A stretch of DNA of 64,000 bases from positions 22,109 to 86,108 of the forward strand of contig PCWB01000055.1 of the NCBI GenBank assembly GCA_002796135.1. Direction: 5' to 3'. The stretch is from Candidatus Omnitrophica bacterium CG11_big_fil_rev_8_21_14_0_20_41_12. GTDB lineage: Bacteria; Omnitrophota; Gorgyraeia; Gygaellales; Profunditerraquicolaceae. Of the stretch, positions 33,248 to 40,114 are shown piece by piece. Position 1 is the stretch's first letter, and every line of letters begins with the position of its first letter. The position numbers and the translations under genes were made by a program. Under the pieces are notes generated by a model that was not told the origin of the DNA, did no database searches, and saw nothing but the letters and a program-made list of their open reading frames with translations.

Positions 33248-33276
33248 TTGACAATCTATAGTTAATCTAGTAAAGT
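33248..33276 (+). promoter_or_regulatory. Sigma70-like promoter of the arsR-led accessory operon, with overlapping palindromes
   Basis: TTGACA (33248-33253), a 17-nt spacer, then TAAAGT (33271-33276). TAGTTT-N10-AAACTA (33276-33297) and the 8-bp palindrome ATAGCTAT (33302-33309) lie between the -10 and the ATG at 33324. Confidence 0.45.
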
Positions 33277-33323
33277 AGTTTCGAAATACATAAACTATGA
33301 AATAGCTATCGAAGGGAATAACA

Positions 33324-33674
33324 ATGGATAAAAATATGGAAGAGAAAATGTTTCAGATGCATGCCGAGGTTTGTAAAAGCATGGCTAACCCCACACGCTT
33401 AAAAATTATCAATCTATTGGGTGCAGGAGAAAAAAGCGTCGAAGAACTAAGAAAAAGGCTCAAATTGCCGAAAGCGAATCTTTCTCAGCATTTGAGTATA
33501 CTGCGTCAACGCAGGATTGTTGCTGCAAGGAGAGAGGGCCTTAATGTTTACTATAAGTGCGCAAATCAAAAAATGCTCAAGGCTTGTGAGATTCTGCGGG
33601 AAGTGCTGATGGAGCAACTTGCCGAAGGGGGCCGTTTGGGTAAATGGATAGATAAGGGGAAAAATGAAACTTGA
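33324..33674 (+). CDS. ArsR/SmtB-family transcriptional regulator
   Basis: Winged-HTH ArsR pattern (ANPTRLKIINLL…LSQHLSILR). It has no Cys-containing alpha3 metalloid-binding motif of ArsR type. Cysteines are at C17 and a C-terminal pair. Confidence 0.75.
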   Translation: MDKNMEEKMFQMHAEVCKSMANPTRLKIINLLGAGEKSVEELRKRLKLPKANLSQHLSILRQRRIVAARREGLNVYYKCANQKMLKACEILREVLMEQLAEGGRLGKWIDKGKNET

Positions 33675-35964
33675 GCGCTTAACGCAAGCGGTTTTGGGCC
33701 GTCCTAAGCTGGTAATTGGGCTTGTAGCCGCCATTAGTATTTTCTTCATCGCGCAGTTTCCCAAGATTACGATTGATACTGATCCCAAGCATATGCTTCC
33801 TGAGGCTTCGCCTGTGCGCCAGTATAATGACTTGGTGGAAAAAGATTTTGTCCTTCATCCGGATGTGATCGTATTGGGGATAGTTAACAAGGATGGAATT
33901 TTTAACCCGCAAACGCTTAAATATGTAAAAGATCTGACGAATGCCGTTCGACAGATTCCCGGTGTGATTGTGCGGGACGTGGATAGCCTGACTACCGTCG
34001 AGAATGTATTTTCTAATCAGGGTGAACTTATCGTCAGGCCCGCTTTAGGCGATATTCCGGATACGGAAGCAGGGCTGGCAGCTTTACGCAAAAGTATTTT
34101 AGATAACGCGCTTTTTGTAAATCGTTTTATTTCTCCGGATGGTTTAGCCGTAGCGATTTTCATTCCTATAGAGCCGACGGCCAACGGTAAGGAAATCGCT
34201 GATAAAATTCGTGCGATGCTGCCAAAGAATTCAAGGCCCAATCAATTTTATCTTGCCGGAGATCCGGTTGCCCGCGATACATTCGGGACAGAGATGTTCC
34301 GTCAGATGGGGCTTTTTTCTCCTATCGCCGGTTTAGTGATGTGTATCGCGCTATGGTTTATGTTCCGCAATATTACCGTGATTATCGCTAACATGGCTGT
34401 TGCAATGATTAGCATCATTTGGAGCATGGGAGGCTTGATTGGTTTAGGGTTTCCCGTTCACATCATGAGTTCTATGGCTCCGGTTTTTTTAATGGCGATT
34501 GCCACTGATGCGGTGCATATTTTTAATGAGTTTGCTTTTCGGCTTGGCGAAGGACAAGATAAACGCAAAGCCATTCTAGAGACAATGAAAGTCGTTGCCT
34601 TGCCAATTTTTTATTCGGATGTCACCACTGCCGTGGGTTTTGCCGCGCTGGCAACAGTCACTATTGTTCCTGTTAAGATTTTCGGGTTAGTTGTTGCGTT
34701 TGGAACGCTGGTGATCCTTTTCATGAGTTTTACTTTTATTCCGGCCTTGCTGATGCTTATTCCTGAAAAGCATATTTTAAAGCTTGCTGCGGTGCATGGA
34801 AAAGGGGAAAAGTTCTCCCCTGTACTTTTACGCCTGGGAGGCTTTTGCGTAGAAAAGGCCAAACCTATTTTACTTGTAGGTATCGTGTTATTTATCGTGG
34901 CGCTAGCAGGCCTGGCGCGCATTCATGTTAACAACAACATGGTGCATTGGTTTAAATTTAATAGTGAAGTCAGAAGCGCAGACCGCGTTATGAATAAATA
35001 TCTTGGCGGGACTTCCACGGCTTATTTAGTTGTTCGGGCCAAAAATGAGGGCGCTGTAGGAGATCCCGCGTTTTTACGCCAAATTGAAGGCCTGCAGCGC
35101 GAATTGGAAAAAGATCCTTTAATCGGAAAAACATTTTCCTTGGCAGACTATATTAAACGCACAAATCTGGTAATGCATGATGATGCGCCGCTATTTAATC
35201 GTATTCCGGATTCTAAGCAGGAAGTAGGGCAGTATTTATTTCTTTTACAGTCAGCAGCCAAGCCCCGGCATCTGGATAACGTTGTCGATTTTTCCCTTAA
35301 AACTGCCAATATCATCATTCAGTTGAAAAGCTGGGACGCTGACACGATGAAGTCAGTAATCGGGCGGGCAAATAGTTTTTTCGCTGCGCATCCGTTGCCG
35401 GAAGTAGAGGATTTTAAACCGGCCGGGATCGCTTATTTTAATATGGTCTGGGACCATGAGGTGCTTTGGGGGATGGTTAGCAGTTTTCTCTGGGGGCTTA
35501 TTCTGGTATTGATACTGCTTGTTTTTCAGACCCGTTCGTTTCTCTGGGGGATTTTGAGTTTTCTGCCGCTGCTATTTACAATCGCATTGATTTATGGTGT
35601 CGTGGGATTAATCGGGAAAGATTTTGATATGCCGGTCGCTGTGTTATCCACGCTTTCCTTGGGTATGGCGGTTGATTTTGCCATCCATTTCGTCGGCCGG
35701 TTCCAGCAGCGGTATAAAGAAGACCCCCGGTTAAGAGAGGCTCTTATCTGGACGGTAGCCCGGCCCGGCAAAGGGATTTTTCTTAATGCTGTTCTTTTTG
35801 CCTTAGGGTTTGCCGTAATGGCTTTTGCAGCTTTAACTCCGTATATCACCGTGGGAGTTTTTATGGCGGCGATTATGGTTCTTTCTTCGGTGATGAGTGT
35901 TATTTATCTGCCGGCGCTTATTCAATTGGGGCGTCAAAAACTAATCAAGCGAGGTGGCGTATGA
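33664..35964 (+). CDS. MMPL/RND-superfamily membrane transporter
   Basis: 766 aa. Two repeated halves each have a large extracytoplasmic loop followed by a ~6-TM bundle, with an SSD-like GxxxD pattern. Confidence 0.6.
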   Translation: MKLERLTQAVLGRPKLVIGLVAAISIFFIAQFPKITIDTDPKHMLPEASPVRQYNDLVEKDFVLHPDVIVLGIVNKDGIFNPQTLKYVKDLTNAVRQIPGVIVRDVDSLTTVENVFSNQGELIVRPALGDIPDTEAGLAALRKSILDNALFVNRFISPDGLAVAIFIPIEPTANGKEIADKIRAMLPKNSRPNQFYLAGDPVARDTFGTEMFRQMGLFSPIAGLVMCIALWFMFRNITVIIANMAVAMISIIWSMGGLIGLGFPVHIMSSMAPVFLMAIATDAVHIFNEFAFRLGEGQDKRKAILETMKVVALPIFYSDVTTAVGFAALATVTIVPVKIFGLVVAFGTLVILFMSFTFIPALLMLIPEKHILKLAAVHGKGEKFSPVLLRLGGFCVEKAKPILLVGIVLFIVALAGLARIHVNNNMVHWFKFNSEVRSADRVMNKYLGGTSTAYLVVRAKNEGAVGDPAFLRQIEGLQRELEKDPLIGKTFSLADYIKRTNLVMHDDAPLFNRIPDSKQEVGQYLFLLQSAAKPRHLDNVVDFSLKTANIIIQLKSWDADTMKSVIGRANSFFAAHPLPEVEDFKPAGIAYFNMVWDHEVLWGMVSSFLWGLILVLILLVFQTRSFLWGILSFLPLLFTIALIYGVVGLIGKDFDMPVAVLSTLSLGMAVDFAIHFVGRFQQRYKEDPRLREALIWTVARPGKGIFLNAVLFALGFAVMAFAALTPYITVGVFMAAIMVLSSVMSVIYLPALIQLGRQKLIKRGGV

Positions 35965-38554: not shown

Positions 38555-38576
38555 CCCTTGTGGGAAGGAGGATATA

Positions 38577-39320
38577 ATGCTCAATCTAAATCCTGATGAG
38601 ATTAAGAAACTGGTTAAAGATAAATACAGCAAGGTCGCTTGTGATCCTTATGGGGTGTATAATTTTCCCGTAGGAAAAGCGTTTGCCTTGAAAGTCGGTT
38701 ACCCTCAAGAAGTTTTGGATACGCTTCCTGTTTCTTTGATGGAGTCTTTTACCGGCGCCAATAACCCTCAGCCGTTTGTGGAACTGAAGCCAGGCGAGAT
38801 TGTATTGGATTTAGGTTGCGGCGGCGGCCTGGATTTATATTTTTATAGCCAGGCTGTGGGGCCGCAAGGAAAGGTTTATGGCGTAGATATTTCCGAAGAT
38901 ATGGTGAACCGGGCAAAAGACAATATGCGTAAAACGGAAAGAGCAAATACGGAAATCCGTATCGGAGAATCTGACAGCATCCCTTTTAACGAAGCATTCT
39001 TTGATCTGGTTGCCTCAAACGGTATTTATAACCTATCTCCGGATAAAGAAGCGGCCATGAAAGAGGTGTTTAGGGTTTTAAAACTCGGAGGCCGGACGGT
39101 CTTTTGTGAAATTGTTCTAAAAGAGCCGTTGTCTGAGGATGAAAGGAAAAATCATAGCGATTGGTTTAGGTGTATCGGCGGAGCTTTGGTGGAAAATGAT
39201 TTTATCGATTTAATGAAAAAAGTTGGCTTTGAGAATATAGAAGTTATATCTACCTGCCGTAATGCCCGCACCGGACATCCTTCGGCTATTTGCGCAAATA
39301 TACGCGCCTATAAAAGATAA
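38577..39320 (+). CDS. ArsM-family SAM-dependent methyltransferase lacking the canonical As(III)-binding cysteines
   Basis: SAM motif I (VLDLGCGGGLD…VGPQGKVYGVD), an ArsM-like N-terminal region (GYPQEV…GANNPQPF), and a C-terminal WFRCIGGAL. The positions equivalent to ArsM Cys72 (…GANNP…) and Cys174 (…SNGIYNL…) are not Cys. The start was set to the ATG at 38577 behind a GGAAGGAGG RBS. Confidence 0.6.
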   Translation: MLNLNPDEIKKLVKDKYSKVACDPYGVYNFPVGKAFALKVGYPQEVLDTLPVSLMESFTGANNPQPFVELKPGEIVLDLGCGGGLDLYFYSQAVGPQGKVYGVDISEDMVNRAKDNMRKTERANTEIRIGESDSIPFNEAFFDLVASNGIYNLSPDKEAAMKEVFRVLKLGGRTVFCEIVLKEPLSEDERKNHSDWFRCIGGALVENDFIDLMKKVGFENIEVISTCRNARTGHPSAICANIRAYKR

Positions 39321-40114
39321 TGATCAATAAGCTCCCGCTGCTAGCCAATAAATTTTACCATCGACCGTCAGTTTTTAACCCGGCTAATCTACTGAAACAG
39401 GCGCGGCGCCAGAAGTCGTTACCATCCGGTAGCGTGCCGGAGATATGCGTGCTTGATCCTGATGGAGATCTATCTTCGTATATTCAGGATTCTTCTGTAG
39501 GTAAGCGTAATCCTTACTGGGCTTGTTATCACACAGACCTTTATAATCTAAAAATTAAAGGTTTAGCTGTAGGCATAGTTGGACGGGCAGTAGGCGCTTC
39601 TTTTGCTGTACTCGTAGCCGAAGAATTATTTGCCTCGGGGTGCCGCCTGTTGATTAGTATTACTTCAGCCGGTCAGATTAAACCCGTTCATCAACCTCCG
39701 TACTTTATTTTAATCGATCGTGCTTTAAGAGATGAAGGGACGAGCTATCACTACATCAAGGGATCGGTTTACGCTTGTATCCGTCCGGACATCTTAGCCA
39801 GGTTAAAGGGAATTGTTAAAAAGAAGCTGTTAGTTATACAAGGCGCGGTTTGGACAACTGATGCGCCATTTCGCGAGACCAAAGAGGCTATTACTTTTGC
39901 GCGTTCGGAAAATCTACTGGCGGTTGAAATGGAGGCTGCGGCACTCTATGCTTTTGCGCAGGCGCGCAAAAAGAAAGTCGTATGTTTTGCCCATGTCACT
40001 AACCAAATGGGCCTGATTGATAAGGATTTTGAAAAAGGCAAAGATAACGGGAATGCGGTTCTGTTGGCGCTTATTTCAAATGTAATCTGTGAATGGAAAA
40101 ATTATGCAAAATAA
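39320..40114 (+). CDS. Nucleoside phosphorylase family protein (PNP/UDP/MTA-SAH nucleosidase fold)
   Basis: Core [10 protein letters not shown]…ISITSAGQI pattern of the PNP_UDP_1 fold, with an unusual ~60-aa N-terminal extension. Confidence 0.45.

Follow-up and report, generated by a model that had tools for sequence, protein, structure and literature searches.

Which function can be assigned to a block of seven genes that stands between queA and tgt in a Candidatus Omnitrophica bacterium (contig PCWB01000055.1), is headed by an ArsR-family regulator and encodes both envelope proteins and a methyltransferase? We analyzed the 64-kb stretch of DNA that carries the block (hereafter the window) and the surroundings of its genes in other genomes. 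The block, referred to below as the cassette, brings known families together in an undescribed combination, a putative ArsR-controlled detoxification/export operon, and it is built of two modules. Module 1, ArsR–MMPL(HAE3)–LolA-like–barrel, is widespread also alone, and module 2, (DsrE/YchN-like)–ArsM-like methyltransferase–(PNP-fold), is often joined to module 1 and travels with it. Sulfur-handling genes are the dominant associates of both modules, a context that was not part of an earlier, sequence-only reading of this DNA, and we tentatively propose that the cassette handles reduced-sulfur stress.

The features of the cassette and its flanks, with open reading frame (ORF) lengths in amino acids (aa), are as follows.

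33248-33276, + strand: sigma-70-type promoter-like site, with −35 TTGACA at 33248-33253, a 17-nt spacer and −10 TAAAGT at 33271-33276
33276-33297, + strand: putative ArsR operator, inverted repeat TAGTTTCGAAATACATAAACTA (TAGTTT-N10-AAACTA), abutting the −10 hexamer
33324-33674, + strand: arsR, 116 aa (ORF with HTH_5)
33664-35964, + strand: MMPL/HAE3-type resistance-nodulation-division (RND) inner-membrane transporter, 766 aa (PF03176)
35961-36782, + strand: periplasmic LolA-like protein, 273 aa (PF17131)
36784-38154, + strand: outer-membrane beta-barrel, distantly DUF1302-like, 456 aa (TTG start)
38167-38520, + strand: DsrE/YchN-like small cytoplasmic protein, 117 aa (PF02635, CGSC (CxxC) motif)
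38577-39320, + strand: ArsM-like class I S-adenosylmethionine (SAM) methyltransferase, 247 aa (Methyltransf_31)
39320-40114, + strand: PNP_UDP_1-fold protein, 264 aa (PF01048)
32158-33150, + strand: queA, upstream flank (NF001140, 423.6 against a cut-off of 324)
40126-41238, + strand: tgt, downstream flank (TIGR00430, 513.5 against a cut-off of 306.75)

All seven co-oriented ORFs were found on the + strand where the sequence-only reading had placed them, and the block start that it gave, 33248, is the first base of the −35 hexamer. Its domain assignments held in searches with hidden Markov models, in which Pfam domains were scored against their gathering cut-offs and curated family models against their own cut-offs (in bits, given below as score against cut-off): every Pfam call lay above its cut-off, that of DUF1302 (PF06980) in the barrel only barely (24.2 against 23.2). 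It had also taken the combination to be absent from characterized systems, and our search of the literature found no paper describing it.

The cassette consists of two modules

Neighborhoods were compared by tblastn and ORF clustering in two scans. The first, anchored on the methyltransferase with one genome per species, gave 80 loci at 50-86% identity, 72 of them with enough flanking genes; the second, a scan of metagenomes anchored on the LolA-like protein, gave 80 loci at 42-82% identity, 47 with enough flank. By record title, the methyltransferase loci came from Omnitrophota, Planctomycetota, Actinomycetota, Elusimicrobiota, Spirochaetota, Nitrospirota and others. About 15 loci, spread over several phyla, have the order ArsR–MMPL–LolA-like–barrel–(DsrE)–methyltransferase–(PNP), and the gene order of the window was found again in Omnitrophota, Schekmanbacteria and unclassified metagenome-assembled genomes, with different flanks. 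MMPL, LolA-like and barrel genes kept their order in nearly all loci, apart from small inserts at a few of them (L098, L114 and L128 among others), and the trio proposed in the earlier reading is real.

The complete trio was present in 33 of the 47 LolA-anchored loci and ArsR in 26, usually directly upstream. A minimal ArsR–MMPL–LolA-like–barrel–YgaP-like transmembrane (TM) unit lies on one contig of a 3.36-Mb assembly. An orthologue of the window methyltransferase was found in just two of these 47 loci, and the complete trio in 11 of the 72 anchored on the methyltransferase. The single seven-gene unit that had been proposed is thus partly borne out: its genes are co-conserved in related genomes, but as two modules and not as a fixed set. 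Two versions of the transporter, with MMPL proteins at ~87-60% and ~41% identity to that of the window, are each accompanied by methyltransferases at least 69% identical. Because two divergent transporters are each joined to close methyltransferases, we argue that selection acts on the combination.

Insertion between queA and tgt, also claimed earlier, is true of the window but specific to lineage. In locus L087 the same seven genes (80-96% identity) lie behind a resolvase, and neither queA nor tgt is on the stretch analyzed; L011 resembles L087, with a PNP-fold protein only 51% identical and again neither gene on the stretch analyzed. In L013, from a close relative (tgt 95%, queA 84%), the order is queA–methyltransferase–PNP–tgt–trmD, with no exporter. 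These three arrangements indicate that the block is modular and mobile and that its placement at queA/tgt is lineage-specific. In L087, the closest relative with all seven genes, we also observed (342-1064 and 8067-8720) that the resolvase lies two ORFs 5′ of arsR and that the PNP-fold gene is split into two ORFs, whether by a stop codon, by a frameshift or by an error in sequencing.

In five other Omnitrophota loci (L014, L021, L032, L034 and L037) a Fur-family regulator gene lies directly 3′ of the methyltransferase gene, followed in three of the five by a gene for a ~466-aa porin-like protein.

Sulfur-handling genes accompany both modules

Neighbors of the trio in the 47 LolA-anchored loci included a flavoprotein resembling sulfide:quinone reductase (SQR; 14), DsrE (8), DsrH (6), DrsE_2 (5), a NifS-type cysteine desulfurase (4) and the YgaP-like TM protein (4), and of 156 ORFs located beyond six genes from the trio, none fell in any of these sulfur families. 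An unbiased tally of Pfam families in 150 co-oriented trio neighbors gave, in rank order, the ArsR helix-turn-helix (HTH), Pyr_redox_2, class I methyltransferases, DsrE, DrsE_2, DsrH, CCG and the YgaP-like TM family. The 396-aa SQR-like flavoprotein had type III sulfide:quinone reductase as its best curated match (E=1.9e-34, below cut-off). In seven loci (L104, L106, L115, L116, L121, L136 and L142) a different class I methyltransferase of ~220 aa, with a best match to the DVU_1556 family that is below cut-off, is encoded beside or inside the trio, either directly 5′ of MMPL or between the LolA-like and barrel genes. Thus, two unrelated methyltransferase families share one exporter association.

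Around the methyltransferase clade the most frequent neighbor families were PNP_UDP_1, DsrE, ArsR, class-V aminotransferase (NifS-like cysteine desulfurase), Fur and ferredoxin-type domains, and further the YgaP-like TM family, MetY-type enzymes, ThiS, 3′-phosphoadenosine-5′-phosphosulfate (PAPS) reductase and rhodanese. Planctomycetota show the pattern ArsR–cysteine desulfurase–(rhodanese)–methyltransferase, with the desulfurase in 18 loci. Six Planctomycetota loci (L074 at 2175-2966, L062, L067, L072, L080 and L086) carry an MddA family gene within a few genes of the methyltransferase, usually together with ArsR and a NifS-type cysteine desulfurase; the family representative scored 364.6 against 270 with NF045656. 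Three Planctomycetota loci have the order PAPS reductase–methyltransferase–MetY–ThiS(–ThiF). Methionine synthesis via methanethiol and MetY (L049-L051) was considered as a function and rejected, as it would use as much SAM as it made.

MMPL, LolA-like and barrel proteins as a predicted tripartite exporter

The transporter matched PF03176 at 111.1 against 20.5, in two stretches, and the HAE3 model TIGR00921 at E=2.6e-63, yet at 214 against a cut-off of 352. Its hydropathy is compatible with the layout of RND proteins, which have 12 TM and two large periplasmic loops: an N-terminal TM, a large loop and a TM cluster are followed by a further TM, large loop and TM cluster. Together with the MMPL domains, this pattern places it among the HAE3/MMPL RND proteins. 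The LolA-like protein belongs to PF17131 (206.2 against 30, covering profile positions 1-184 of 184) and also matched DUF1329 (E=1.5e-13). It carries an N-terminal signal-like hydrophobic segment at residues 4-22. The barrel has such a segment too, and the DsrE-like, methyltransferase and PNP-fold proteins have none. The DUF1302 match of the barrel is confined to the last ~46 positions, at the C-terminal end of the profile, and no single stretch of it is significant; PF06980 is present in many barrel homologues, and a structure model supports the predicted barrel that Pfam left marginal. The same TTG start was called for this gene on an identical contig from a metagenome. We take the three proteins to make up an envelope-spanning tripartite exporter.

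The nearest characterized relative is AmeABCD of Castellaniella defragrans, which consists of the HAE3 pump AmeD, the DUF1302 protein AmeA, the DUF1329/LolA-superfamily protein AmeB, and AmeC (PMC6394551). In both systems an HAE3 pump is combined with a periplasmic protein of the LolA superfamily and a DUF1302-like barrel, and for AmeABCD export of hydrophobic compounds across the whole envelope has been proposed. They differ in that the AmeC (COG4447/BNR-like) partner is absent from the window block and from the 25 commonest neighbor families, the periplasmic protein of the cassette is of the short PF17131 type (273 versus 451 aa), and its barrel is smaller (456 versus 605 aa) with a marginal DUF1302 match. 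The cassette also has the pump gene first, ArsR control and sulfur-handling neighbors, whereas AmeABCD is tied to terpene catabolism. With our data, the little-studied tripartite HAE3 exporters of the AmeABCD type come to include a widespread form under ArsR control, which is carried by Omnitrophota, Thermodesulfobacteriota and further uncultivated anaerobes.

The precedent also raises the possibility that the trio is a general hydrophobe or lipid exporter, as AmeABCD is for solvents and HpnN for membrane lipids, and that the methyltransferase and PNP-fold protein modify a lipid, a quinone or a nucleoside-linked lipid, or are unrelated neighbors. AmeABCD, the sole characterized tripartite HAE3 system, exports hydrophobic monoterpenes (PMC6394551), 25 of the 47 trio loci have no nearby sulfur gene, and there are weak matches of MMPL to HpnN (E=1.1e-26), of the PNP-fold protein to HpnG (E=3.3e-5) and of the methyltransferase to UbiE/MenG models (about E=1e-17). 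However, none of these scores comes near its cut-off, the 25 commonest neighbor families include no genes for squalene, hopanoids, quinones or terpenes, the families that recur beside both modules are sulfur-handling ones, and control is of the ArsR type, not the TetR type, in 26 of 47 loci. We consider such an exporter unlikely. A direct hopanoid parallel (HpnN pump plus HpnG nucleosidase) was rejected, as the scores were 93 against 752 and 23.5 against 187 and hopanoid genes were not nearby.

A candidate operator and an ArsR regulator with one conserved cysteine

The promoter-like site directly 5′ of arsR matches the consensus at 10 of 12 positions. Upstream of arsR orthologues at 13 loci (the window and 12 others), the −35 hexamer is invariant, the −10 hexamer is kept as TAnAnT, and the operator element is kept directly after it as AGTTkCGAAATATATAAACTA. 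Apart from the promoter and the repeat, these upstream regions diverge among loci. At locus L030 the operator site is a perfect palindrome, TAGTTTCGAATATTCGAAACTA. Judged by sequence, the region resembles a promoter overlapped by an operator, to which ArsR would presumably bind, and the 22-bp candidate operator is a directly testable regulatory element.

The regulator belongs to the ArsR/SmtB family, with 46.1 against 22 for HTH_5 (PF01022) and 79.8 against 55 for NF033788, and its nearest solved structures are Rv0081, PagR, SqrR, NolR, HlyU and BigR. It is of an 'HAEVC' subtype in which Cys17 (motif HAxxCK) is the sole Cys conserved among orthologues. The As(III)-sensing Cys-Val-Cys site (ELCVCDL type) is missing: the alpha3 region reads GAGEKSVEELRK and contains no Cys, as the earlier reading had stated. 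It also lacks the Cys pair of BigR and SqrR (alpha2 plus C-terminal alpha5), with Asn30 aligned to the N-terminal Cys of SqrR, and the BigR model NF040642 gave 58.5 against 155. A sensor of the BigR/SqrR class was therefore rejected for the window ArsR, the pair being absent at the aligned N-terminal position.

The comparison with the SqrR/BigR/YgaV–YgaP/sHdrR/SoxR regulators is nevertheless close in other respects. The cassette ArsR is an ArsR/SmtB winged-helix protein without classical metal sites, as they are, SqrR is among its nearest structures, and in sister loci such regulators adjoin SQR-like, DsrE-family, rhodanese and YgaP-like TM genes. The differences are Asn30, the presence of Cys17 only, the low BigR score and a cassette with no persulfide dioxygenase partner. 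A second ArsR subtype (motifs CVxD and RCYY) is found at loci of the SQR and desulfurase types, and it is this subtype that occurs fused to the methyltransferase.

The methyltransferase is an ArsM relative that lacks two arsenic-binding cysteines

The methyltransferase matched Methyltransf_31 at 95.2 against 27, and Methyltransf_25 and Methyltransf_11 also above cut-off; with its Rossmann GxGxG region, read as LDLGCGGG and invariant in the clade, it is a class I SAM-dependent enzyme. Compared with CmArsM (PDB 4FR0/4FS8), it shares the class I Rossmann fold and ArsM-specific flanking motifs (E ~1e-22 over residues 44-226). Of the three As(III)-binding Cys, C72 is replaced by Ala61 and C174 by Gly149, and C224 is kept as Cys199; these states are invariant across the clade and agree with the atypical ArsM relative seen in the earlier reading. 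It further differs from CmArsM in having no C-terminal domain (247 versus ~380 aa) and in forming a separate clade, 50-86% identical across phyla. PRK11873 gave 189.4 against 263, and every curated ArsM cut-off exceeds the score of the enzyme; its best curated matches are selenoprotein-type ArsM-like models (NF041537, E=1.4e-66). With two of three Cys replaced and scores below the ArsM cut-offs, no ArsM-style As(III) binding is expected, and the enzyme should be an ArsM relative that does not bind As(III) as ArsM does. The MddA model gave no match to it.

Of the 150 nearest representatives at 50% clustering (P0241-P0390), 83 carry Cys at each of the arsenic positions. In ~60 others the first position is not Cys, the second is Gly and the third is mostly Cys, and the Ala/Gly/Cys group of the window enzyme makes up a small part of these. 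Database clusters at least 71% identical to the window enzyme number more than 120, the named ones being mostly from Omnitrophota; by the names of homologues, the host belongs to Candidatus Omnitrophota. Some records call homologues 'arsenite methyltransferase', a label that probably covers several families not acting on arsenic. A large, strongly conserved ArsM-like clade is probably mis-annotated in this way, and metagenomic arsM counts may be inflated by it. Among the 150 representatives, a large sister group of ArsM-like proteins (SFAGVGYP / TSNGVLNL / WAECIVGA; 260-560 aa) was also observed to be without the first two As-binding Cys.

These results bear on a classical arsenic or antimony resistance system, with ArsR as repressor, methylation by ArsM and efflux of the methylated metalloid. 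Such a system would explain an ArsR-family regulator next to an ArsM-like fold and fits the database labels, but the clade-wide Ala61 and Gly149, the PRK11873 score and the absence of the CVC motif from alpha3 all contradict it, and ArsB, ACR3, ArsC, ArsA and ArsD are not among the 25 commonest neighbor families in either tally. Arsenic resistance, largely refuted by the sequence, was rejected on the missing Cys and the ars genes not found among the commonest neighbors, and we regard it as scarcely credible.

Gene fusions were also found. ArsR–methyltransferase fusion ORFs occur at L057 (260-1372) and L168 (2345-3448; P0241); they are few and lie on short contigs. P0244 (648 aa) joins a class-V aminotransferase of the cysteine desulfurase type to a methyltransferase that has the motifs of the clade and 52% identity to the window enzyme.

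DsrE-like and PNP-fold proteins

The DsrE-like protein is a DsrE/YchN family member (PF02635, 60.7 against 22.7). It matched E. coli YchN (1jx7; E=8.6e-9, residues 1-113), with its CGSCC over CKTC of YchN, and resembles YchN and DsrE–TusD in length, in fold family and in having a cysteine motif where DsrE has its active site; YchN itself has no assigned function. With the equivalog models of TusD and DsrE it scored far below cut-off (22 against 89). In four sister loci (L096 at 5490-5910, L099 from 4854, L111 from 4946 and L120 from 3024) we observed an in-frame TGA followed by GGC (VYL-TGA-GGC) at the first Cys of DsrE-like ORFs, with the frame continuing for ~40 residues. These ORFs sit in ArsR–DsrE–DsrH–SQR-like–DrsE_2–MMPL–LolA-like–barrel clusters, and their sequence suggests that the sister proteins are a selenocysteine (UxxC) form.

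Could the cassette then detoxify selenium or tellurium? The DsrE-like protein would carry selenide or telluride, for example from a NifS-like selenocysteine lyase, the ArsM-like enzyme would methylate it before its removal, and ArsR would sense a chalcogen or a thiophilic metal. The selenoprotein-type models that best match the methyltransferase, the UxxC motif of the sister DsrE relatives and the best match of the SQR-like protein, a selenoprotein SQR subtype, are all in line with this, class-V aminotransferases double as selenocysteine lyases (SclA, E=1.6e-40, below cut-off), and His13 and Cys17 of ArsR could form a thiophilic site. Against it, the SQR-like, DsrH, MddA, MetY/ThiS/PAPS reductase and rhodanese neighbors are sulfur enzymes and not selenium-specific, neither selD nor other selenium-specific genes are among the 25 commonest neighbor families, and selenocysteine in a sister protein shows that the organism uses selenium, not that selenium is the substrate. 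We judge selenium or tellurium detoxification to be quite unlikely.

The PNP-fold protein (PF01048, 88.5 against 25.1) represents a separate, well-conserved subfamily, whose motifs include AHVTNQMG. Its best curated match, DeoD, gave 46.4 against 232, with all curated equivalog models far below cut-off, and the MtnN and methylthioadenosine phosphorylase (MTAP) models gave no match at E<=0.01. In the PDB it matched T. thermophilus PNP and S. solfataricus MTAP (~E=1e-10), and the two alignments place Ser where the PNP/MTAP chains have Arg in the R-x-G-T-x-G motif. A role in recycling S-adenosylhomocysteine or methylthioadenosine, which the earlier reading had raised, is unsupported. Its gene usually lies directly 3′ of the methyltransferase gene, at position +1 in 11 loci. 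Queuosine salvage was considered because the gene adjoins tgt, and was rejected because loci that lack tgt also have it together with the methyltransferase gene.

A possible role in reduced-sulfur stress

Collectively, the gene associations make it conceivable, if a little short of probable, that the cassette handles reduced-sulfur stress caused by sulfide or sulfane sulfur, and possibly selenide. The same associations are our basis for inferring what the effector, the methyl acceptor and the exported molecule are and what the PNP-fold protein does. An ArsR dimer would occupy the inverted repeat abutting the −10 hexamer and leave when the effector appears. The host would be an anaerobe unable to oxidize toxic reduced sulfur with oxygen, and module 2 would work in its cytoplasm, where the DsrE-like protein would carry reactive sulfur and the methyltransferase would methylate the carried sulfur with SAM. 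The exporter could then expel a hydrophobic sulfur species, either zero-valent sulfur or the methylated product, and a nucleoside by-product might be cleared by the PNP-fold protein.

There are precedents for both regulation and chemistry. Sulfane-sulfur sensors of the ArsR type have been described (10.1101/2025.02.17.638619), and small class I methyltransferases S-methylate H2S and methanethiol as a detoxification (PMC11445057, PMC12904073). Like the window enzyme, MddA, MddH, MddM1 and MddM2 are small and SAM-dependent, with a proposed part in sulfide detoxification by methylation (PMC11445057, PMC12904073), and MddH, MddM1 and MddM2 are class I and UbiE/UbiG-like, as it is. They differ in that no exporter or DsrE partner has been reported for them.

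Several points weigh against a role in reduced-sulfur stress. SQR, cysteine desulfurase, rhodanese and MddA are all absent from the window, and its ArsR combines Asn at the N-terminal Cys position of SqrR and a single conserved Cys with a low BigR score. The methyltransferase probably falls in none of the proven Mdd families, and small volatile methyl sulfides should need no exporter. Most trio loci have no methyltransferase orthologue and most methyltransferase loci have no trio; the two modules, mostly found apart, can thus work independently. The desulfurase–methyltransferase fusion is on a single 2.4-kb contig only, and the assignment of function as a whole comes from gene association in metagenome assemblies.

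A more specific proposal is that the trio is a dedicated exporter of zero-valent sulfur (S8/polysulfanes) or methylated polysulfides across the Gram-negative envelope, under a new, Cys17-type ArsR sensor; we hold this to be doubtful. Sulfide would be oxidized by an SQR-like enzyme, or methylated by the Cys-poor ArsM-like enzyme, fed by DsrE-like carriers or by cysteine desulfurase, and the hydrophobic product would pass to the LolA-like chaperone and leave through the 18-strand-type barrel. If true, anaerobes would gain an oxygen-independent means of sulfide disposal. For the disposal of sulfide-derived sulfane sulfur by anaerobes without persulfide dioxygenase, and for the passage of hydrophobic sulfur across the outer membrane, the cassette offers candidate genes.

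Layout of the block and extent of the transcript

The order around the cassette is ruvB–queH–GHL10–queA–[block]–tgt–trmD–rplS–rnhB. The stretch just 5′ of queA (30436-32143) holds queH (PF02677, 195.9 bits) and a GHL10 glycosyl-hydrolase-like gene, and the cassette therefore splits a queH–queA–tgt–trmD tRNA-modification stretch.

Within the block, genes overlap at the arsR/MMPL (11 nt), MMPL/LolA-like (4 nt) and methyltransferase/PNP (1 nt) junctions and are otherwise separated by spacers of 1 nt (LolA-like/barrel), 12 nt (barrel/DsrE) and 56 nt (DsrE/methyltransferase). The queA–arsR gap of 173 nt is the sole sizeable one nearby. The PNP/tgt spacer (11 nt) and the tgt/trmD overlap (10 nt) are as tight as the junctions within the block, and inspection of the sequence 3′ of 40114, at the PNP–tgt junction, found no convincing terminator. 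For these two reasons the cassette transcript may extend through tgt–trmD.

Genuine ORFs of 150 aa or longer in the window all lie on the + strand, and the two − strand ORFs listed for it overlap + strand genes. With such extreme strand bias, co-orientation by itself means little. Chance adjacency in a dense, single-orientation genome, with no functional unit behind it, would indeed account for co-orientation, for short spacers and for tgt and trmD junctions as tight as those inside the block. It would not account for an order that recurs across phyla with different flanks, for a conserved promoter and operator directly 5′, or for fusions that tie ArsR and cysteine desulfurase to the methyltransferase, and we consider it very improbable.

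Among the ORFs of the window that adjoin the block there was no integrase or resolvase, in a search that took in neither tRNA genes nor flanking repeats, and an Rfam scan of the whole window gave no matches at gathering thresholds. The GC content of the block, 0.43-0.48, is slightly above that of its flanks (about 0.37-0.43).

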